Virus record (IMG/VR): IMGVR_UViG_3300042914_003231
Coordinates: 1 to 64,000 of that record
DNA length: 64,000 nucleotides
DNA from: a virus
Taxonomy: Duplodnaviria; Heunggongvirae; Uroviricota; Caudoviricetes
Strand: one strand, 5' to 3'
Under the pieces are notes generated by a model. That model worked only from the letters and a program-made list of their open reading frames with translations, was not told the origin of the DNA and did no database searches. The stretch's first letter is position 1. Each line of letters opens with the position of its first letter. A program made the translations under genes and the position numbers. Below are positions 88 through 40,133 of the stretch, piece after piece.

Positions 88-318
88 TCACACTTTTTTT
101 TCTTCGGTTGTATTCCCATCTCCTTCGTTTTTACCTATATTTTTTTTACTTATTAACAATCCATTACCGAATGACTTGTTTAGGATAACAACTGTTGATC
201 TTACCTGAGTCAGATCGTTTTCTTGTTTTGCTAGAGCCTTCAGTATTTCTTCCTCCATTGGAGTCTCTGGACATATTAATAGGGATACTCCTTCGTTGCA
301 GATTGTTTCTACTCTCAT
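88..318 (-). CDS. hypothetical protein, 76 aa; overlaps the 3' end of 164..718 in another frame
   Basis: ORF track. The sequence looks natural (MRVETICNEGVSLLICPETPMEEEILKALAK). Its ATG lies inside the upstream ORF. Confidence 0.4.
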   Translation of the reverse strand: MRVETICNEGVSLLICPETPMEEEILKALAKQENDLTQVRSTVVILNKSFGNGLLISKKNIGKNEGDGNTTEEKKV

Positions 319-718
319 GTGTAATAGTATTTAACTCATAGAAAACTTTAGGTAATACTTTTGTTTCAATGAGTTTGTCAATAATTTGTTTTTTTGTGAT
401 TTTTAGCATTTTGAAGCTCATGTTATTCACATACTCCGGGTCCCCAGCAATACCATAATGTTTTATAAAACATTTTGTTATTTCCATATCTGGAAACCAG
501 TTCATAAAGAATTTATTGGCCAGTATATTAACTATCTCTTGCTTCCACAGATTAATCACCTTCTGTGCTTTTTTGTAGAGTTTTATAACTCTTTGTTTTT
601 TTTCTAATGACATCTCTTGTAATTCTTTCTCTGAGTACACACTTAGGCCATAAAGGGCTCTGTTGTACAGAAAGTTTTGATGATCATTGTAATTGTTTTT
701 TTCATAATGTTTTTGCAT
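164..718 (-). CDS. hypothetical protein, 184 aa
   Basis: ORF track. The last ~50 aa, which overlap 88..318, are low-complexity and look like out-of-frame translation. Confidence 0.5.
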   Translation of the reverse strand: MQKHYEKNNYNDHQNFLYNRALYGLSVYSEKELQEMSLEKKQRVIKLYKKAQKVINLWKQEIVNILANKFFMNWFPDMEITKCFIKHYGIAGDPEYVNNMSFKMLKITKKQIIDKLIETKVLPKVFYELNTITHESRNNLQRRSIPINMSRDSNGGRNTEGSSKTRKRSDSGKINSCYPKQVIR

Positions 719-760
719 AAGGGTTAAGAAGAGGGAATAGCATTGGTTAGAAAATAAGAA

Positions 761-14903: not shown

Positions 14904-14935
14904 TTTGCATAATTAAAAAAACTATATTATATTTG
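14904..14935 (+). promoter_or_regulatory. promoter: TTTG (-33) N20 TATATTTG (-7)
   Basis: TTTG at 14904-14907 and TATATTTG at 14928-14935. Same spacing as the promoter at 16511-16542. Confidence 0.6.
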
Positions 14936-14939
14936 TAAC

Positions 14940-15011
14940 ATGAAACTGTTTTTCTTATCGTTTAGTTGTTTATGGTATCTCTCACAAGGAGGCAGCCCGG
15001 GCATTTCATGA
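14940..15011 (+). CDS. leader ORF 1, 23 codons: MKLFFLSFSCLWYLSQGGSPGIS
   Basis: ATG lies 4 nt after the -7 box. Residues 3-15 use only F, L, S, C, W and Y, the amino acids of the next 8 tRNAs. A terminator follows 36 nt after the stop. Confidence 0.5.
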   Translation: MKLFFLSFSCLWYLSQGGSPGIS

Positions 15012-15047
15012 TAGGTTTTTCATAGTTAAACATGATTAATTGACAAA

Positions 15048-15079
15048 ATCCCTGGGCTGATTACCCGGGGATTTTTTTT
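15048..15079 (+). terminator. intrinsic terminator immediately before tRNA-Phe
   Basis: 9-bp stem ATCCCTGGG/CCCGGGGAT with a 7-nt loop and T8. Confidence 0.8.
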
Positions 15080-15151
15080 GGACTCATAGCTCAGTAGGTA
15101 GAGCGCAGGACTGAAAATCCTGCCGCACTGGTTCGATTCCAGTTGAGTCCA
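15080..15151 (+). tRNA. tRNA-Phe (GAA)
   Basis: Acceptor GGACTCA/TGAGTCC; D GCTC/GAGC; anticodon arm CAGGA-CTGAAAA-TCCTG; T arm ACTGG-TTCGATT-CCAGT. Confidence 0.92.
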
Positions 15152-15156
15152 CACAA

Positions 15157-15239
15157 GCCGACACTGTAGAGTGGGAGATCTACACCAGACTGTAAATCTG
15201 GAGTCTTAGACTTTGGGAGTTCGAATCTCTCTGGCGGCA
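15157..15239 (+). tRNA. tRNA-Tyr (GTA), long variable arm
   Basis: Acceptor GCCGACA/TGGCGGC (one mismatch); arm CCAGA-CTGTAAA-TCTGG; T arm GGGAG-TTCGAAT-CTCTC. Confidence 0.85.
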
Positions 15240-15244
15240 CAAAA

Positions 15245-15330
15245 GGAAGGTTGGCAGAGCCTGGCCGATTGCACCAGTCTTGAAAACTGGAGGTCCCTTG
15301 GATCCGTGAGTTCGAATCTCACACCTTCCT
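15245..15330 (+). tRNA. tRNA-Ser (TGA)
   Basis: Acceptor GGAAGGT/ACCTTCC; arm CCAGT-CTTGAAA-ACTGG; long variable arm; T arm GTGAG-TTCGAAT-CTCAC. Confidence 0.9.
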
Positions 15331-15390
15331 CAACATGCATAGAAAAATGCACTTTTCTATACATGTTTTTTGAAAGTGCATAAAAACTAT

Positions 15391-15431
15391 ACATCTCTAG
15401 CTCAACTGGCGGAGCAGCGGTCTCCAAAACC
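15391..15431 (+). pseudogene. truncated tRNA-Trp-like 5' portion (acceptor 5' strand to anticodon loop only)
   Basis: D arm GCTC-AACTGGCG-GAGC and loop CTCCAAA. Shares the 13-mer GGTCTCCAAAACC with the intact tRNA-Trp (15419-15431 versus 15834-15846). No T arm and no 3' acceptor complement. Confidence 0.6.
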
Positions 15432-15464
15432 ATAAAGCAGTTTGGATACTGAAGTAAAAACATG

Positions 15465-15472
15465 TATATTTG
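15465..15472 (+). promoter_or_regulatory. -7 box TATATTTG, 3 nt before ATG 15476
   Basis: Matches TAnnTTTG. Confidence 0.45.
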
Positions 15473-15475
15473 TAC

Positions 15476-15817
15476 ATGCCTTCAAAAAATAAAGAAATAC
15501 TAAAAAAGCATAGAGATGCTTGGTATAAAAAGAATAAAAAAAAACAGATTACTAACCAGCTTGAAAAAAGACAGGAATTAAAGAAATGGTTTCAGGAATA
15601 TAAGAGATCATTATCTTGTAAAGAGTGTGGATTTAGCTTTGAATTATTTCCAGAATGTTGTGATTTCCATCACAGAGATGGAGATACAAAGAAAGATGTA
15701 GTAAGCAGATTGCTACCAATGGGAATAAAAGCACTAAAGAAAGAGATTGAAAAATGTGATCCTCTTTGTGCTAATTGTCATAGAAAGCTCCATGCAAAAT
15801 TAGAATATACAGGTTAG
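15476..15817 (+). CDS. HNH homing endonuclease (free-standing, inside the tRNA array)
   Basis: CKECG...CCDFHHRDGDTKKD...CDPLCANCHRKLH is an HNH/zinc-finger motif. The stop codon lies inside the tRNA-Trp 5' end. Confidence 0.8.
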   Translation: MPSKNKEILKKHRDAWYKKNKKKQITNQLEKRQELKKWFQEYKRSLSCKECGFSFELFPECCDFHHRDGDTKKDVVSRLLPMGIKALKKEIEKCDPLCANCHRKLHAKLEYTG

Positions 15818-15880
15818 CTTATTGGAAGCACCAGGTCTCCAAAACCTCGGATGGAAGGAGTTCGATTCTCTTAACCTGTG
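15809..15880 (+). tRNA. tRNA-Trp (CCA)
   Basis: Acceptor ACAGGTT/AACCTGT; D GCTT/AAGC; loop CTCCAAA; T arm AGGAG-TTCGATT-CTCTT. Confidence 0.85.
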
Positions 15881-15885
15881 CACAA

Positions 15886-15957
15886 GGTACCGTGGGTGAG
15901 GGGTTTAGCCTCAGGTCTGCAAAACCTGCTACGTCTGTTCGAATCAGACCGGTACCT
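15886..15957 (+). tRNA. tRNA-Cys (GCA)
   Basis: Acceptor GGTACCG/CGGTACC; arm CAGGT-CTGCAAA-ACCTG; T arm GTCTG-TTCGAAT-CAGAC. Confidence 0.92.
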
Positions 15958-15958
15958 C

Positions 15959-16174
15959 ATGAAAGAGATAGATGAAGAGTTCAACTTACTTCAGTTGTAC
16001 ATCTATGATTGCATCAACCGGATGTGTTTGAATGCATACATAGATAAGACTAAGTGTTCTCATCACCCTTTGTATACTTTTGAAGAATACAAAACGGCAA
16101 TATGGGATCCTTGGACTGGAGAGACTGTAGCAAGTAGAACAAGATGGGCTTTAAATATTAAGCCTTTATTTTAG
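15959..16174 (+). CDS. hypothetical protein, 71 aa, flush between tRNA-Cys and tRNA-Ser
   Basis: The ATG lies 2 nt after the tRNA-Cys discriminator. The stop TAG (16172-16174) overlaps the tRNA-Ser start (16173). The track ORF 15878.. was trimmed to the first ATG outside the tRNA. Confidence 0.5.
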   Translation: MKEIDEEFNLLQLYIYDCINRMCLNAYIDKTKCSHHPLYTFEEYKTAIWDPWTGETVASRTRWALNIKPLF

Positions 16175-16257
16175 AGAAGTGGCTGAGTGGCTTAAGGCAC
16201 CGCACTGCTAACGCGGAGGATGTAACAGTTCCACCGGTTCGAATCCGGTCTTCTCTG
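16173..16257 (+). tRNA. tRNA-Ser (GCT)
   Basis: Acceptor AGAGAAG/CTTCTCT; loop CTGCTAA; long variable arm; T arm ACCGG-TTCGAAT-CCGGT. Confidence 0.88.
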
Positions 16258-16262
16258 CAAAT

Positions 16263-16343
16263 GCCCATATGGTGGAATGGTAGACGCGCTGGTCTTAGGA
16301 ACCAGTACCGTAAGGTATGTAGGTTCGAGTCCTACTATGGGTA
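16263..16343 (+). tRNA. tRNA-Leu (TAG)
   Basis: Acceptor GCCCATA/TATGGGT; arm CTGGT-CTTAGGA-ACCAG; long variable arm; T arm GTAGG-TTCGAGT-CCTAC. Confidence 0.9.
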
Positions 16344-16348
16344 CATAT

Positions 16349-16431
16349 ACTCCTGTGGTGTAATTGGTAGCCGCGCTAGGCTTAAGACTCAGTGGACTTA
16401 GTCCGTGCCGGTTCGAGTCCGGCCAGGAGTA
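16349..16431 (+). tRNA. tRNA-Leu (TAA)
   Basis: Acceptor ACTCCTG/CAGGAGT; loop CTTAAGA (weak anticodon stem); variable stem GGACT/AGTCC; T arm GCCGG-TTCGAGT-CCGGC. Confidence 0.8.
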
Positions 16432-16474
16432 CTTTGCTCACCTGATTAATAAAGTGACCAAAAATTATTACACT

Positions 16475-16520
16475 GTCTACCAATCAGTTAGACCTTCTGA
16501 AGAAAATATTTTTGGTAGAC
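16475..16520 (+). other. 9-bp stem-loop at the end of tRNA block 1
   Basis: GTCTACCAA (16475-16483) pairs with TTGGTAGAC (16512-16520). The 3' arm overlaps the -33 TTTG of the next promoter. Confidence 0.5.
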
Positions 16521-16542
16521 TCAAACAAACCTATTATATTTG
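16511..16542 (+). promoter_or_regulatory. promoter: TTTG (-33) N20 TATATTTG (-7)
   Basis: TTTG at 16511-16514 and TATATTTG at 16535-16542. Confidence 0.6.
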
Positions 16543-16550
16543 TCTTGCAA

Positions 16551-16652
16551 ATGAAACGCATACAACATATCCAGATGGCCAATACAGGCAGAAATACGGT
16601 GGAGATTAAAGATCCGACCGTGTCCATGGGTGTTGCATGTAGTTTTAGATAA
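16551..16652 (+). CDS. leader ORF 2, 33 codons: MKRIQHIQMANTGRNTVEIKDPTVSMGVACSFR
   Basis: ATG lies 8 nt after the -7 box. Residues 2-24 use only the 14 amino acids served by the 16 downstream tRNAs, and all 14 occur. A terminator follows 28 nt after the stop. Confidence 0.5.
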   Translation: MKRIQHIQMANTGRNTVEIKDPTVSMGVACSFR

Positions 16653-16680
16653 GACATTTTTAGTTAGCTAAACCGCATTA

Positions 16681-16710
16681 AACCCCTGGACAAGTTCTAG
16701 GGGTTTTTTG
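16681..16710 (+). terminator. intrinsic terminator immediately before tRNA-Pro
   Basis: Stem (AA)CCCCTGG/CTAGGGG(TT) with a 7-nt loop and T6. Confidence 0.8.
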
Positions 16711-16718
16711 TTTTACCC

Positions 16719-16791
16719 CGGGATGTAGATCAGTTGGTAGATTGCGTGCTTTGGGAGCATGAGGTCGCAGGTTCGAGCCCTGTCATCCCGA
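16719..16791 (+). tRNA. tRNA-Pro (TGG)
   Basis: Acceptor CGGGATG/CATCCCG; arm CGTGC-TTTGGGA-GCATG; T arm GCAGG-TTCGAGC-CCTGT. Confidence 0.9.
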
Positions 16792-16847
16792 CTAGCAGAA
16801 GTGGTACTCCAGTGCCCGTACTGAAAACCAAACAAAACTGGAGACAT

Positions 16848-16920
16848 GGGGTTCAAGCACAAGCGGACGTGCATTAGCTTTGCAAGCTAGAGGATCTCGG
16901 TTCGAGGCCGAGGAGCTCCA
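16848..16920 (+). tRNA. tRNA-Ala (TGC)
   Basis: Acceptor GGGGTTC/GAGCTCC with a G3:U70 pair; D GCAC/GTGC; arm TTAGC-TTTGCAA-GCTAG; T arm CTCGG-TTCGAGG-CCGAG. Confidence 0.88.
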
Positions 16921-16921
16921 C

Positions 16922-17083
16922 ATGAATGAAGAACTATATAATTGGCTGGAGAAGATGTTTATGTTCTCCAATATCCCTAAGTACAGGAAGTACTTTAAGG
17001 AATGGGTGGACAACATAACTGAAGATCAGATCACCGGTTTTCAGAGAATGATGGGAGCCAACTATAAGATTAAGCAGGAATAG
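16922..17083 (+). CDS. hypothetical protein, 53 aa, flush between tRNA-Ala and tRNA-Gly
   Basis: The ATG lies 2 nt after the tRNA-Ala discriminator. The stop TAG (17081-17083) lies inside tRNA-Gly, which starts at 17074. Confidence 0.5.
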   Translation: MNEELYNWLEKMFMFSNIPKYRKYFKEWVDNITEDQITGFQRMMGANYKIKQE

Positions 17084-17148
17084 CTCATCCTTGGTAGAGC
17101 TCCAGTCTTCCAAACTGGAGGTGGCGAGTTCGAGCCTCGCTTCCTGCT
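17074..17148 (+). tRNA. tRNA-Gly (TCC)
   Basis: Acceptor GCAGGAA/TTCCTGC; arm CCAGT-CTTCCAA-ACTGG; T arm GCGAG-TTCGAGC-CTCGC. Confidence 0.92.
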
Positions 17149-17331
17149 CACAACTGCAGTGCCCATGTACAGTGGGGGTACAATCACTGCAGGTAGAAGA
17201 GTGCTAAGAAATCCGGTGTTGGGTTAGCTCTGGACACTAAGGTAAGGAGTGGGTAAGGACCACAGTCCCCGTCTAACAGGGACAAAGTTTTGCAAAAGCC
17301 TTCCCTGGGATGGAGCACTCTTCATGATATT
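17149..17331 (+). ncRNA. structured non-tRNA spacer RNA (unknown family)
   Basis: 8-bp hairpin CTGCAGTG/CACTGCAG (17154-17192). 10-bp long-range helix GAAGAGTGCT (17196-17205) with AGCACTCTTC (17314-17323). Inner hairpin GTCCC...GGGAC. GC-enriched; no cloverleaf. Confidence 0.4.
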
Positions 17332-17407
17332 GGTCTGTTAGGGGAGTCCGGCCGTCCCTACCTCACTGTCTATGAGGGGATCACGGGTTCGAATCCCGTA
17401 CAGACCG
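17332..17407 (+). tRNA. tRNA-Asp (GTC)
   Basis: Acceptor GGTCTGT/ACAGACC; arm CCTCA-CTGTCTA-TGAGG; T arm ACGGG-TTCGAAT-CCCGT. Position 37 is an unusual T. Confidence 0.78.
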
Positions 17408-17518
17408 CTGGGCGGTAGTCTAATGAGCAGGGTTAGTAGCGTGCTGACTAACTAGTCTTAGGACGATCATCTTATGGGATGATAGATATCAGTAACCATT
17501 CTGATCTGCCCCACCAAT
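17408..17518 (+). ncRNA. second structured non-tRNA spacer (unknown)
   Basis: Hairpins ATCATC-ttatgg-GATGAT and ATCAG-taaccatt-CTGAT; ends ...CTGCCCCACCA; repeated TAGTCT(A/T)A. Confidence 0.3.
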
Positions 17519-17590
17519 TGCCCCTTAGCTCAGCGGTAGAGCAAAACCCTGTTAAGGTTGAGGTCCTAGGTTCAATCCCTAGAGGGGCAG
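17519..17590 (+). tRNA. tRNA-Asn (GTT)
   Basis: Acceptor TGCCCCT/AGGGGCA; loop CTGTTAA; T arm CTAGG-TTCAATC-CCTAG. Confidence 0.9.
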
Positions 17591-17595
17591 CAAAT

Positions 17596-17670
17596 AGACG
17601 AGTAGCTCAGCCTGGTTAGAGCGCCCGCCTGATACGCGGAGGGTCACAGGTTCAAATCCTGTCTTGTCTA
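17596..17670 (+). tRNA. tRNA-Ile (GAT)
   Basis: Acceptor AGACGAG/CTTGTCT; loop CTGATAC; T arm ACAGG-TTCAAAT-CCTGT. Confidence 0.88.
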
Positions 17671-17727
17671 CTTTGGGACCGTTTGGTAGTGACATAGTCT
17701 TGAACTAGATCATAGAAACTATCACAT

Positions 17728-17800
17728 AGGAGTATAGCTCAGTTGGGAGAGCATCCGGTTTACATCCGGACGGTCCAAGGTTCGAGTCCTTGTATTCCTA
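17728..17800 (+). tRNA. tRNA-Val (TAC)
   Basis: Acceptor AGGAGTA/TATTCCT; arm TCCGG-TTTACAT-CCGGA; T arm CAAGG-TTCGAGT-CCTTG. Confidence 0.9.
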
Positions 17801-17884
17801 CAAACTTTAAAGATTTAAACTTATAATGTTTACACTATTAAAATATAAGGTTATAAAGAGAAGGATAAAACCTTAACTCATTAT

Positions 17885-17956
17885 TCCCTCATAGCTTAGT
17901 GGTAAAGCAGTATACTTTTAATATACGGAGCGGCAGTTCGATTCTGCCTGGGGGAA
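17885..17956 (+). tRNA. tRNA-Lys (TTT)
   Basis: Acceptor TCCCTCA/TGGGGGA; arm GTATA-CTTTTAA-TATAC; T arm GGCAG-TTCGATT-CTGCC. Confidence 0.9.
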
Positions 17957-17962
17957 CTTTAA

Positions 17963-18034
17963 ACCCCCGTAGCTCAATGGAAGAGTAAGAGACTTCTAAG
18001 CTCAAGGTTACCAGTTCGAGTCTGGTCGGGGGTT
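17963..18034 (+). tRNA. tRNA-Arg (TCT)
   Basis: Acceptor ACCCCCG/CGGGGGT; loop CTTCTAA (short GAG/CTC stem); T arm ACCAG-TTCGAGT-CTGGT. Confidence 0.82.
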
Positions 18035-18040
18035 CTGAAT

Positions 18041-18114
18041 AGGCCCTTAGCTCAGTTGGTTAGAGCAGTACTCTTATAAGGTAAAGGTCACCGGTTCAAA
18101 CCCGGTAGGGCCTA
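18041..18114 (+). tRNA. tRNA-Ile (TAT), reads ATA
   Basis: Acceptor AGGCCCT/AGGGCCT; loop CTTATAA; T arm ACCGG-TTCAAAC-CCGGT. Confidence 0.85.
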
Positions 18115-18124
18115 CATAATATTT

Positions 18125-18199
18125 AGCGGGGTGACTGGAGTTGGTTCCAGCACAGCCTCATAAACTGTACAGACGCGGGTTCGAGTCCCGCCCCCGCTA
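18125..18199 (+). tRNA. tRNA-Met (CAT), elongator-like
   Basis: Acceptor AGCGGGG/CCCCGCT; loop CTCATAA; T arm GCGGG-TTCGAGT-CCCGC. No 3xG:C initiator signature in the anticodon stem. Confidence 0.85.
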
Positions 18200-18265
18200 C
18201 AATGAGTGCTAATGACACCTGATAAAGGAGGGGATATATTACCAGGTCCCCCGACACTCAGTAAC

Positions 18266-18337
18266 GCTCCCATCATCTAGGGGTCAGGATATCAGGTTTT
18301 CGACCTGAGCACCAGGGTTCGAATCCCTGTGGGAGTA
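18266..18337 (+). tRNA. tRNA-Glu (TTC)
   Basis: Acceptor GCTCCCA/TGGGAGT; arm TCAGG-TTTTCGA-CCTGA; T arm CAGGG-TTCGAAT-CCCTG. Confidence 0.9.
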
Positions 18338-18342
18338 CTTAA

Positions 18343-18415
18343 GCTTGAGTAGCACAATTGGTAGTGCACCTCCCTTGTAAGGAGAAGGTTGTCAGTTCGA
18401 GTCTGACCTCAAGCT
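18343..18415 (+). tRNA. tRNA-Thr (TGT)
   Basis: Acceptor GCTTGAG/CTCAAGC; D GCAC/GTGC; loop CTTGTAA; T arm GTCAG-TTCGAGT-CTGAC. Confidence 0.9.
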
Positions 18416-18417
18416 CT

Positions 18418-18491
18418 GTGTCTGTAGAGGAATTGGTAGACTCCCCGGAATGTGGATCCGGTGCTTGTGGGTTCAAGTCCCATCAGACACC
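18418..18491 (+). tRNA. tRNA-His (GTG)
   Basis: Acceptor GTGTCTG/CAGACAC; arm CCGGA-ATGTGGA-TCCGG; T arm GTGGG-TTCAAGT-CCCAT. The only tRNA followed by an encoded CCA. Base -1 is T, not G. Confidence 0.88.
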
Positions 18492-18497
18492 CCATTA

Positions 18498-18571
18498 GTT
18501 CTCATAGCTCAATTGGATAGAGTCCTTGACTACGGATCAAGAGGTTGAAGGTTCGACTCCTTCTGAGAACA
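18498..18571 (+). tRNA. tRNA-Arg (ACG)
   Basis: Acceptor GTTCTCA/TGAGAAC; arm CTTGA-CTACGGA-TCAAG; T arm GAAGG-TTCGACT-CCTTC. Confidence 0.92.
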
Positions 18572-18576
18572 CATAA

Positions 18577-18647
18577 TGCCCTTTCGTCTAACGGCAGGAC
18601 CTGTGGTTTTGGGCCACATGATCGAGGTTCGAATCCTTGAGGGGCAA
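18577..18647 (+). tRNA. tRNA-Gln (TTG)
   Basis: Acceptor TGCCCTT/AGGGGCA; arm TGTGG-TTTTGGG-CCACA; T arm CGAGG-TTCGAAT-CCTTG. Followed by a T-run. Confidence 0.9.
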
Positions 18648-18680
18648 CTAGTTTTTTATTGTTTGCACATCCAAAGTTTT

Positions 18681-18692
18681 TTTGTATATTAG
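18681..18692 (+). promoter_or_regulatory. candidate late-promoter box TTTGTATATTAG
   Basis: An identical 13-mer TTTTGTATATTAG recurs at 44670-44682, upstream of another structural gene. Confidence 0.4.
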
Positions 18693-18716
18693 CAATAATT
18701 TTCATATATTATTAAT

Positions 18717-19607
18717 ATGGATGTAGTAAACTTTGATGCTCTCAAAGCACAGGGCAAAATTATAAAAATATCAGATGTGAATCCTGATGAGGATTACTTC
18801 ATCATTGGTCATTATGATCCGCGAAGAAGAGAATTTAAAGCTACTGATTACCCTATCTATGCTATAAAAGCACGTGATGTTTTAAATTCTTCAAATGCTT
18901 TTAATAATCCTTTTGATTTCTATTTAGATGGTAATGCTCCTGCAGGAGGGGATGGCTCAGCAAGTAATCCTTTTAATTTATTTTCTCAAGCCGTTGCCTA
19001 TATTAATACACTTCCTTCAGCAACATATACTCTATATGTATTGCCGTACAGTTATACAGAATCATCCCCGGTTATTAATCTACCAAACAATTCTGCTCTA
19101 AATATAATAGGAGTAGTAGCTAATTCTTGTAGCTTTAATTTTAATGTACAATTTACCGCAATACCAGCTTCCTCATATGCTGTATGGTATGAAAATATTG
19201 CTTTTAGTAATTTTGAACTAGATCTTTCTTTAGCATCTTTTGCTTCTATATCCTTTACAGGTTCTAAGGTAGATCTTATAAGAACAGATTCTAATCCTTC
19301 TACTATAGTGACATTACAAGGTGCAATGTTTGCCTCTACCCTTTCCGGTAGAGTTTTATGGTTAAATGGTGTAATGTTTGGTGATATTAATGTTCAAACA
19401 AATGGTGAGTTGTTTTGTAATACGGTATTACAACTACAAGGACAATTTAAGTTAACAGGATCTGCTAAGTTAAAAACTTTAAGTATGCCAAACCCTACAC
19501 CTAATGGTGTAGATGGTATTCCTGTAGGTTTGAATATACCGGTTTGGAGAACTGATGCTGCAAGTGATGAAACTTTTACAGGAACTCTTACAAAAATAAT
19601 ATATTAA
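18717..19607 (+). CDS. tail fibre or receptor-binding protein, 296 aa
   Basis: The N-terminal ~55 aa are paralogous to 19610..20287 (ALKAQGKIIKISD...DYFIIGHY versus LIAQGKILKASE...DYLIIGKY). First gene after the tRNA array. Confidence 0.55.
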   Translation: MDVVNFDALKAQGKIIKISDVNPDEDYFIIGHYDPRRREFKATDYPIYAIKARDVLNSSNAFNNPFDFYLDGNAPAGGDGSASNPFNLFSQAVAYINTLPSATYTLYVLPYSYTESSPVINLPNNSALNIIGVVANSCSFNFNVQFTAIPASSYAVWYENIAFSNFELDLSLASFASISFTGSKVDLIRTDSNPSTIVTLQGAMFASTLSGRVLWLNGVMFGDINVQTNGELFCNTVLQLQGQFKLTGSAKLKTLSMPNPTPNGVDGIPVGLNIPVWRTDAASDETFTGTLTKIIY

Positions 19608-38507: not shown

Positions 38508-40133
38508 ATGGCAACTCCAGTATTAAACAATGGTATATTCTTGCGCGACACGAATTACCATGCTACATCACATGTAGACAGTTATCACCTTCAGAACATG
38601 TTAAAAGATGCTGAACCAATGGATATGGGACCGGTAGATATTTGGGCAATGACTCAAAAGGTAGAAATGCCTCTTTACCAGTTATCATCTTTTGGTGGTA
38701 AAAATATCATCATGGTTGATAATGTCCGTGGTGAATATAAATGGCAAACTCCTGTATCACAGGATTTACCTTACATTATTGAGGACATCGAGCCTACAAA
38801 CTTAGCTAAAGGTCAGGATGGCACAACCTTCCGTATCAAGATTAACAAGCGTGAGTTTGGTCATGGTGATATCATCACTTATGACAAATACAATGGTGTC
38901 GAGTTATACATTACTGCTGATGATATCTTACCTATGGGTGACGGTTTCATCTACACTGTGCAGTTGGTAAACAATGACAACTACAAATTCTTAGACAACA
39001 AGTATTTAGTTCCTCAAACCAAATTATTCCGTAAAGGTTCTGCCCGCGGTGAGTATGGAGAAAGATTCTCTGACATCCAAACTCGCTCTGGCTTCCGTGA
39101 GTTCTACAACTTCGTAGGAGGAGCAGAAGCACATGTTCACTACTCTATCAGCTCTCGTGCTGACTTACAAATCAAGGGTGGTATGAATGCAGATGGTACA
39201 GTTCCTGTAACTGAGATCTGGAGAAACTTTGATAAACAATTAGACCCTTCAATCAGTAAGATCGAAGACATCGCTTCAAAGATGGGTAAAGACTACTTGA
39301 AGCGTGCAGTGGGTAATGGTACCTTAACCCGTACCTTCTTAACCTCTATGGAGGCTGCTCACTTAACTAAGATTTCTACTGACATTGAGACCTATTTAAT
39401 GTGGGGTCATGGTGGACGCGTTAAGCAAGATGGACCAGATGACATCCGTATGTCAGTGGGTCTATGGAAACAGCTTGACAACTCTTACAAGCGCGTATAC
39501 AACAAGTCAAGCTTTAGCTTAGAATTGTTCCGTGCTGAGTTATACAACTTCTATGCAGGTCGTGTTGAGTTCCAAGGTCCGGATCCAAAACGCTCATTGA
39601 TTGTACAAACAGGTATGGGTGGTATGCGCTTAGTAAATGAGGCTATCAAGCGTGAAGCTGTAAACTCAGGTTTAGTTATCCAAGCTGCTAGCAACAATGG
39701 TATTGGTGCTATCACAGGTCAAGGTATGGACTTAAACTATGGCTTTGCATTCACAAGCTATGTAATTCCATTCTTAGCAAATGTTAAGTTTGTGTTAAAC
39801 CCTGCGTTTGACAACTTACATACTAATGACATTGAGAACCCAATCATTGATGGTAACCCATTATCATCATACAGCTTTGTGATCTTCGACATCACAGACA
39901 CTGGTAACGACAACATCTACATGTTGAAGTTATCTTGGGATAACCAATTAAAATGGTGGTACCAGAATGGTACAATGGACTACATGGGACGTACCCAAGG
40001 CTTCCAGTCTTCTGGACAGTTTAACGGTTACCGTGTATACATGAGCCAAACTATGCCAGCTATCTGGGTGAAAGACCCTACCAAAGTGTTGAAGATTGTT
40101 ATGCGCAATCCGATCACTGGTGGTTCTTTCTAA
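38508..40133 (+). CDS. major capsid protein, 541 aa
   Basis: Position after the scaffold gene; codon usage shifts to CGT, G/C-ending codons; a GC-rich stem-loop follows. Confidence 0.65.
   Translation: MATPVLNNGIFLRDTNYHATSHVDSYHLQNMLKDAEPMDMGPVDIWAMTQKVEMPLYQLSSFGGKNIIMVDNVRGEYKWQTPVSQDLPYIIEDIEPTNLAKGQDGTTFRIKINKREFGHGDIITYDKYNGVELYITADDILPMGDGFIYTVQLVNNDNYKFLDNKYLVPQTKLFRKGSARGEYGERFSDIQTRSGFREFYNFVGGAEAHVHYSISSRADLQIKGGMNADGTVPVTEIWRNFDKQLDPSISKIEDIASKMGKDYLKRAVGNGTLTRTFLTSMEAAHLTKISTDIETYLMWGHGGRVKQDGPDDIRMSVGLWKQLDNSYKRVYNKSSFSLELFRAELYNFYAGRVEFQGPDPKRSLIVQTGMGGMRLVNEAIKREAVNSGLVIQAASNNGIGAITGQGMDLNYGFAFTSYVIPFLANVKFVLNPAFDNLHTNDIENPIIDGNPLSSYSFVIFDITDTGNDNIYMLKLSWDNQLKWWYQNGTMDYMGRTQGFQSSGQFNGYRVYMSQTMPAIWVKDPTKVLKIVMRNPITGGSF

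Follow-up and report, generated by a model that had tools for sequence, protein, structure and literature searches.

Why would a phage template the first nucleotide of the CCA end of its tRNAs and leave out the two that follow? The question is raised by an array of 24 tRNA genes, all on the + strand, that was called with ARAGORN at positions 15080–18648 of a 64,000-nt stretch of phage DNA (positions 1–64,000 of IMG/VR record IMGVR_UViG_3300042914_003231), referred to here as the window. In all 24 genes, C occupies position 74, directly after the discriminator base (position 73). At position 75, 14 genes have A and 9 have T, and a full CCA is templated solely by tRNA-His (18492–18494), the CA of positions 75–76 being absent from the template in the other 23. 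These counts reproduce exactly those of the original prediction, which saw in the conserved C a specific rule of 3' maturation. The C74-only tail is a real, selected feature, and one that is ordinary for the host lineage. Its best explanation, to which we give a probability of about 55%, is a 3'-end convention of that lineage, probably Bacteroidota, in which C74 would be retained and only C75 and A76 would be added.

ARAGORN calls extend beyond the discriminator only where the sequence matches CCA, and their end coordinates hence hint at the pattern; in an independent reading, the end of the acceptor stem was taken from the ARAGORN bracket strings and the genome was read onward from there, and it is this reading that gives C74 in all 24 genes. 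The Rfam covariance model RF00005, which ends at the discriminator, matched all 24 genes at full length (1–71/71) with scores of 30.8–74.3 bits (gathering threshold 29), and each match ended one base 5' of the conserved C. The two boundary callers agree for every gene: the shift in boundaries that had been named as a possible refutation was not seen, the conserved C was never the discriminator, and the suggestion that C74 validates the tRNA boundaries is borne out. No Rfam family besides tRNA was found in the window. Against a background in which C accounts for 0.169 of positions 15000–18700 outside the tRNAs and for 0.177 of the whole window, the probability of finding C in 24 of 24 genes by chance is about 3e-19 to 1e-18, and the earlier claim that the conserved C is far from chance holds at P ~1e-18. 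For position 75 in the 23 genes without CCA, the probability is ~3e-5 that all should be A or T and ~0.01 that none should be C; positions 76–81 of the window genes resemble the background and show no constraint. The base at position -2 is never G in any gene, and C74 is thus not paired with the 5' leader in an extended stem.

T74 was found in 0 of 24 genes and a fully templated CCA in 1 of 24, versus 23 of 23 in the T5-like Proteus phage 2. The array belongs neither to the CCA-templating class of the E. coli or T5 type (1/24) nor to the Bacillota-type RNase Z class with U74 (T74 in 0/24). Genes of the B. subtilis type resemble those of the window in being CCA-less and in needing trailer removal and CCA addition (PMC1874595), but their cut falls 3' of position 73, and the native precursor without CCA that was shown has U74-A75 (PMC1874595).

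Conservation was assessed against an IMG/VR contig of 128.5 kb (L001), found through the protein flanking the array upstream (55% identical), and against Bacteroides phage crAss001, and the comparison within the clade comprises this one relative plus crAss001. The downstream protein (18717–19607), used as a query, found no IMG/VR relative, GenBank phages, searched with the array DNA at near identity, yielded single-tRNA matches only and no close relative of the window phage, and a metagenome scan for relatives brought up the same phage once more (L249), along with four short contigs that have no tRNAs beside the homolog. L001 carries a syntenic array of 23 tRNAs with C74 in every gene once the Rfam boundaries are applied, by which its tRNA-Ser(TGA), misplaced by ARAGORN by 1 nt, is put in register; full CCA is templated by four of its genes (Gly, Asp, Arg-TCT and His). 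In their tRNA bodies, the 22 orthologous pairs have 74% identity. Along the acceptor 3' strand the value is 50–86%; it rises to 91% at position 73 and 100% at position 74 (with the Rfam register used for Ser-TGA), and falls to 64% at position 75, which is a two-state A/T site, and to 27–36%, about the random level, at positions 76–81. No base of the 3' end is better conserved than position 74, and conservation stops there. It is invariant while positions 76–81 are randomised; C74 is therefore under purifying selection, and position 74 is where conservation would be expected to end if it were the last nucleotide retained.

The same tail is found in many other phages. A total of 115 tRNA-containing IMG/VR loci, on contigs whose hosts were not identified, were drawn with one common D-arm pattern and yielded 589 tRNAs, a few of which ARAGORN mis-registers by 1 nt; 327 template CCA and 262 are CCA-less; of the latter, 190 (73%) have C at position 74, 59 have T, 11 have A and 2 have G. 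Among the 54 arrays of at least four tRNAs, 27 are fully CCA, 16 are C74-only (including examples with 24/24 and 20/20 genes), 6 have T or A at position 74 and 5 are mixed. When the C-only arrays are pooled, C74 is present in 147 of 149 genes, and position 75 is A in 70, T in 44, G in 21 and C in 4. C75 is depleted (0/23 in the window and 4/139 in the pooled C-only arrays, versus ~13% C at positions 77–81) and, by these counts, CC outside CCA is avoided in C-only arrays. C74 without CCA is, therefore, a common class among phage tRNA arrays and is not peculiar to the window phage.

In phages with known hosts, the tails of the tRNA genes are seen to mirror the pattern of those hosts. Bacteroides phage crAss001 (MH675552, 23 tRNAs, host B. 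intestinalis) falls in the class with C74 without CCA (20/22 by Rfam boundaries, the 23rd gene, tRNA-Ala, being ambiguous), with CCA solely in tRNA-His and one tRNA-Leu, and Microbacterium phage Zooman has C74 in 34 of 34 genes and CCA in 4. Bacillus phage BCU4 has 8 genes with CCA, 9 with a non-C base (T74) and 2 that are C-only, the tails of Synechococcus phage S-CAM1 are mixed, and T4-like phage RB51 templates CCA in 8 of 9 genes. In the survey of other phage arrays that the original prediction suggested, the rule was found in 16 of the 54 arrays, in crAss001 and in Zooman, but not in the T5-like, Bacillus or Synechococcus phages. The T4-type cluster of RB51 resembles the window in having a C74-only tRNA-Gln whose 3' end is created by the RNase P cut of its neighbour, whereas nearly all genes of T4-like and T5-like phages template CCA, matching their proteobacterial hosts. 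In RB51 (L254 1166–1240), this tRNA-Gln ends G73-C74 and tRNA-Leu begins at the next base, and it is the lone C74-only gene in a CCA-templating cluster. Some T4 tRNAs reportedly need host tRNA nucleotidyltransferase and RNase BN, a finding said to go back to Deutscher, Foulds and McClain in 1974 and to Seidman et al. in 1975.

A bacterial sample of 116 tRNA-containing loci from species-representative genomes, drawn with the same D-arm pattern and containing few genes for some phyla, displays the same divisions. Pseudomonadota template CCA in 78 of 82 genes, and Acidobacteriota and Campylobacterota do so in all. In Bacteroidota, C74 is present in 27 of 27 genes and CCA in 2 (ARAGORN), and in Ignavibacteriota/Chlorobiota the figures are 8 of 8 and 1; with Rfam boundaries, the three phyla together have C74 in 34 of 34 genes and CCA in 3, position 75 being mostly A or T. 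Planctomycetota (C74 in 7/8, CCA in 1) and Actinomycetota (C74 in 14/17, CCA in 3) lean the same way, the tRNA genes of Streptomyces and Corynebacterium being mostly C74-only (11/13), and in Bacillota about half of the CCA-less genes have C74 and about half T74. The genes of Bacteroidota, Ignavibacteriota and Chlorobiota have the same C74 tail as those of the window but are cellular, and mostly dispersed or in short clusters. Judged by these tails, the window has the pattern that is usual for tRNA genes of the phylum infected by crAss-like phages. The special rule that the original prediction implied for the window phage does not survive this comparison, given the frequency of C74-only tails in phage arrays, the 34 of 34 genes in Bacteroidota and its sister phyla, and crAss001.

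The tmRNA gene of a Chlorobiota metagenome-assembled genome (L171 5817–6214) ends ...GGCTCC-A-C-T-A, and by this A-C-T ending the convention of C74 without CCA extends to tmRNA in this host group. Bacteroidetes/Chlorobi have been described as mostly without templated CCA (Ardell and Hou 2016, PMC5143459), and partial templating was not discussed there. In the literature searched, which was incomplete, C74 templating was mentioned for chloroplasts and, anecdotally, for one mycobacterial gene, and nothing was found for crAss-like phages; no description of C74-only templating across Bacteroidota and their phages seems to exist in that literature, which is not proof of novelty.

A Crass-type major capsid protein is encoded at 38508–40133 (PF23898, E 6.7e-32), further Crassvirales markers were matched (tail ring proteins 1 and 2 and muzzle; PF25702, PF24228 and PF25731), and the terminase and portal match PHROGs; these matches identify the window as belonging to a crAss-like phage (Crassvirales), with a capsid ~22% identical to those of gut crAss phages. 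A Shine–Dalgarno-like site, even as a weak 4-mer, was found for only 3 of 40 genes (open reading frames (ORFs) of at least 150 aa), and gene leaders are A-rich (e.g. AAAAACAAAAAACAAAAA before the capsid gene), as is typical of Bacteroidota-style translation initiation. The Bacteroides promoter consensus TTTG-N17-23-TAnnTTTG (-33 TTTG/-7 TAnnTTTG) is not enriched across the window (5 sites against an expectation of 3.4), but three of them lie within the tRNA region, on the tRNA strand and with an identical TTTG-N20-TATATTTG geometry, where we estimate that ~0.1 would be expected. These three sites, all on the + strand, are located at 14904–14935, ~145 nt upstream of the first tRNA, at 15441–15472, directly upstream of an HNH ORF and the Trp-Cys pair, and at 16511–16542, between tRNA-Leu(TAA) and tRNA-Pro. 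L001 has a promoter-like site at the homologous Leu(TAA)-Pro position (11651), and in crAss001 one lies immediately ahead of the first tRNA (L242 1625). This arrangement suggests that the array may be transcribed by host RNA polymerase in several units and, together with the scarcity of Shine–Dalgarno sites, is consistent with a Bacteroidota host and makes one likely, though it does not amount to proof.

Phage crAss001, whose host is known, provides a close parallel. It is likewise crAss-like, with a large same-strand array, a Bacteroides-type promoter upstream, a tRNA-His with CCA, T at position -1 and a C-T spacer, and an HNH endonuclease ORF inside the array. It differs in being a distant relative with another tRNA order, one tRNA-Leu with CCA and a tRNA-Phe with T74.

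None of the 40 window ORFs of at least 150 aa, which were scanned against Pfam (16 of them, with five shorter ORFs, also against PHROGs), matched any family of tRNA-processing enzymes, nucleotidyltransferases and RNase Z included, and maturation would, therefore, be carried out by host enzymes or by genes outside the window. A tblastn search with the RNase Z proteins of B. subtilis and E. coli gave no match in any of the fetched loci.

The full conservation of C74 (100%) does point to a rule of 3' maturation, as the original prediction proposed, and the idea of a partial substrate for the CCA-adding enzyme fits published work (PMC3161902, PMC3848588, PMC4681348), whereas the position of the cut, the enzymes and the reason for the avoidance of C75 are what we infer. 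Host 3' processing would leave the templated C74 on the tRNA, the trailer being removed from position 75 onward. This could occur by an endonucleolytic cut after C74 or, where tRNAs lie 4–5 nt apart, by the RNase P cut of the next tRNA, which would leave a trailer of 1–5 nt to be trimmed to C74; where the genes are densely packed, 5–6 nt separate a discriminator from the next +1, and many spacers are 4–5 nt long. The CCA-adding enzyme of the host would then add C75 and A76 only. C75 would be avoided unless the full CCA is templated, plausibly because CC beside the discriminator blocks the nuclease that removes the trailer.

Parallels exist in two other lineages. Many tRNA genes of chloroplasts encode C74 without CCA; chloroplast tRNase Z cuts after C74 whatever the flanking sequence, and nucleotidyltransferase completes the end with CA (PMC3161902). 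This chloroplast/T. maritima-type tRNase Z system has the mechanism that is proposed for the window, but it concerns another lineage and enzyme, and the same specificity in the RNase Z of Bacteroidota is a proposal by analogy. In P. acnes and S. coelicolor, differential RNA sequencing found cleavage 'always between the Cs', and completion by the CCA-adding enzyme was proposed (PMC3848588, PMC4681348); a mycobacterial tRNA-Cys gene has been noted as lacking 'CA' only (PMC4524478). Actinobacteria and actinobacteriophages share with the window the C74-only genes, and the actinobacterial cut between C74 and C75 is the one proposed for the window, but their genomes are high-GC and position 75 is often G.

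Several points weigh against this explanation. The host assignment is indirect, and the nearest isolate by capsid is Leptolyngbya (cyanobacterial) phage Lbo-JY46 (28% identity); the first 50 kb of that phage contain a single tRNA, with an A-C-T end, which is too few to inform the matter. Both surveys drew on one D-arm pattern and cover some phyla with few genes, and the T74 of crAss001 tRNA-Phe makes the C74 rule less than absolute. The proposed cut site is extrapolated from chloroplasts and Actinobacteria; P. acnes is without RNase Z (PMC3848588). Canonical tRNase Z is reported to be inhibited most strongly by the first C of CCA (PMC3161902), because of which a non-canonical specificity or an exonuclease route must be assumed. 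Finally, the sequence pattern would fit a C74 that serves purely as a recognition element equally well.

In that alternative, C74 would pair with the conserved G of the L15 loop in RNase P RNA, as in the C74 contact of the 'RCCA' interaction, by which the 5' ends of precursors without CCA would still be cut efficiently; the trailer would later be cut after position 73, and the whole CCA would be added. C74 and C75 are known to pair with two L15 G residues in RNase P RNA of types A and B, activity returns in full when the C74 pair is re-established, and cleavage is slower for precursors that have no CCA (PMC1874595); moreover, neighbours at spacers of 4–5 nt are separated by RNase P cleavage, and a retained L15 contact would be useful there. 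However, such a contact predicts that C75 should be helpful, yet C75 is absent from the 23 window genes and depleted in C-only arrays; Bacillota also use the L15 contact (PMC1874595), yet their CCA-less genes and phages often have T74, and the cleavage between C74 and C75 in Actinobacteria (PMC3848588, PMC4681348) would be left unexplained. We consider it unlikely that an L15 contact is the reason for the pattern, although such a contact and the retention of C74 are not mutually exclusive. Another view is that C74 provides a safety margin, in that an exonuclease could stop at position 73 or 74 and either end would be a valid substrate for the CCA-adding enzyme, and the templated C would spare the first C addition, a slow step on pyrimidine discriminators. 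Spacers of 4–5 nt are natural exonuclease substrates after RNase P cleavage, CCA-adding enzymes complete partial ends (PMC3848588, PMC4681348) and are slower on U73 or C73 (PMC4477674), and 6 of the 24 window discriminators are pyrimidines. The same logic would favour a templated C75, yet C75 is avoided, and we find this account less probable still, although it is hard to separate from the retention of C74 as the best explanation, from which it differs only in the type of nuclease.

A C without function, whether a decaying remnant of CCA, a compositional effect or a boundary artefact, is highly improbable. The full CCA carried by the L001 orthologs of tRNA-Gly, tRNA-Asp and tRNA-Arg(TCT) does indicate that the CCA and C-only states interconvert, but the chance probability of ~1e-18, the agreement of covariance-model boundaries in 24 of 24 genes and the invariance of C74 beside randomised positions 76–81 in the relative all speak against this idea, and neutral decay would not strip C75 yet keep C74 in every gene across phyla. 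Chance, an ancestral relic and a boundary artefact are ruled out by the conservation profile and the boundary check.

The exception, tRNA-His, is the sole window gene with C73, and it has the full CCA in the window, L001, crAss001 and one IMG/VR C-only array. Within C-only arrays, CCA is found in 4 of 10 tRNA-His genes versus 15 of 243 other genes (Fisher p = 0.004, with the qualification that the three crAss-like phages are not independent). CCA addition was inefficient and error-prone with C73 in one tested tRNA (PMC4477674), and by analogy poor CCA addition on C73 is a plausible reason for templating the whole end of tRNA-His. The idea that a G-1:C73 pair lengthens the stem and shifts the cut by one nucleotide was tested and rejected here, since the window, L001 and crAss001 all have T at -1. 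C73 is kept, and the G-1 usual in bacteria is not templated, in the tRNA-His genes of the window (18417–18494), L001 (13337–13412) and crAss001 (L242 3816–3893), and in all three phages the tRNA upstream is separated from tRNA-His by its C74 and one T only.

The individual genes were located from the ARAGORN calls, RF00005 and the reading of the tails, with ends that include C74 (or CCA for tRNA-His). The array begins with tRNA-Phe(GAA) at 15080–15152 (A73 at 15151, C74 at 15152, then ACAA and the next tRNA), tRNA-Tyr(GTA) at 15157–15240 (A73, C74 at 15240, then AAAA and the next tRNA) and tRNA-Ser(TGA) at 15245–15331 (T73, C74 at 15331, A75). The Trp-Cys pair consists of tRNA-Trp(CCA) at 15809–15881 (G73, C74 at 15881, then ACAA and the next tRNA) and tRNA-Cys(GCA) at 15886–15958 (T73, C74 at 15958, A75), and is followed by tRNA-Ser(GCT) at 16173–16258 (G73, C74 at 16258, then AAAT and the next tRNA), tRNA-Leu(TAG) at 16263–16344 (A73, C74 at 16344, then ATAT and the next tRNA) and tRNA-Leu(TAA) at 16349–16432 (A73, C74 at 16432, T75). 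Next are tRNA-Pro(TGG) at 16719–16792 (A73, C74 at 16792, T75), tRNA-Ala(TGC) at 16848–16921 (with a G3:T70 pair; A73, C74 at 16921, A75), tRNA-Gly(TCC) at 17074–17149 (T73, C74 at 17149, A75) and tRNA-Asp(GTC) at 17332–17408 (G73, C74 at 17408, T75), the L001 ortholog of which has the full CCA. Then come tRNA-Asn(GTT) at 17519–17591 (G73, C74 at 17591, then AAAT and the next tRNA), tRNA-Ile(GAT) at 17596–17671 (A73, C74 at 17671, T75), tRNA-Val(TAC) at 17728–17801 (A73, C74 at 17801, A75), tRNA-Lys(TTT) at 17885–17957 (A73, C74 at 17957, then TTTAA and the next tRNA), tRNA-Arg(TCT) at 17963–18035 (T73, C74 at 18035, then TGAAT and the next tRNA), tRNA-Ile(TAT) at 18041–18115 (A73, C74 at 18115, A75) and tRNA-Met(CAT) at 18125–18200 (A73, C74 at 18200, A75), which has the initiator-like acceptor AGCGGGG/CCCCGCT. 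The last genes are tRNA-Glu(TTC) at 18266–18338 (A73, C74 at 18338, then TTAA and the next tRNA), tRNA-Thr(TGT) at 18343–18416 (T73, C74 at 18416, T75 at 18417, this C-T being the whole spacer before tRNA-His), tRNA-His(GTG) at 18418–18494 (C73 at 18491, templated CCA at 18492–18494, T at -1, G-1 not templated), tRNA-Arg(ACG) at 18498–18572 (A73, C74 at 18572, then ATAA and the next tRNA) and tRNA-Gln(TTG) at 18577–18648 (A73, C74 at 18648, T75).

Some features of the array lie outside the question of the 3' end. The gap of 477 nt between tRNA-Ser(TGA) and tRNA-Trp is filled by a 115-aa ORF of the HNH endonuclease family (phrog_3106, E 1e-21; 15470–15817, + strand), whereas the two tRNAs are just 4 nt apart in L001; this ORF looks like a mobile endonuclease inserted in the array, as in crAss001 and T4-like clusters. 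In tRNA-Met(CAT) (18125–18200), an A1:T72 pair replaces the bacterial C1xA72 mismatch, and the L001 ortholog has G1:T72. The tRNA-Ile with anticodon TAT (18041–18115) is syntenic with a CAT gene of L001 (12962–13037) that was called as Met and is probably a lysidine-type Ile2; the difference between TAT and CAT is an anticodon switch for AUA reading. L001 has two further Rfam tRNA matches, at 247–367 (-) and 614–729 (-), of 121 and 116 nt and scoring 48.6 and 47 bits, both of which end A73-C74-A75; ARAGORN made no calls there, no counterpart was found in the window, and these matches may carry an intron or insert.

On a broader scale, we propose, tentatively and with somewhat less than even confidence, that Bacteroidota, probably with Actinomycetota and Planctomycetota, and their phages share an uncharacterised pathway in which C74 would be kept, the trailer would be removed from position 75 by a nuclease that differs in specificity from canonical RNase Z and is blocked by CC, only CA would then be added, the tail class of an array would mark the host phylum, and the status of tRNA-His would reflect a constraint of the pathway. 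Three classes of tail (full CCA, C74-only, and T or another base at position 74) follow the bacterial phylum and are copied by its phages, and they might help to predict the hosts of uncultivated phages. The templating of C74 alone points to the retention of nucleotide 74, a step that has been shown biochemically only in chloroplasts, and the compact array of 24 tRNAs, with its spacers of 4–5 nt, is a convenient natural set of substrates for the study of this retention.

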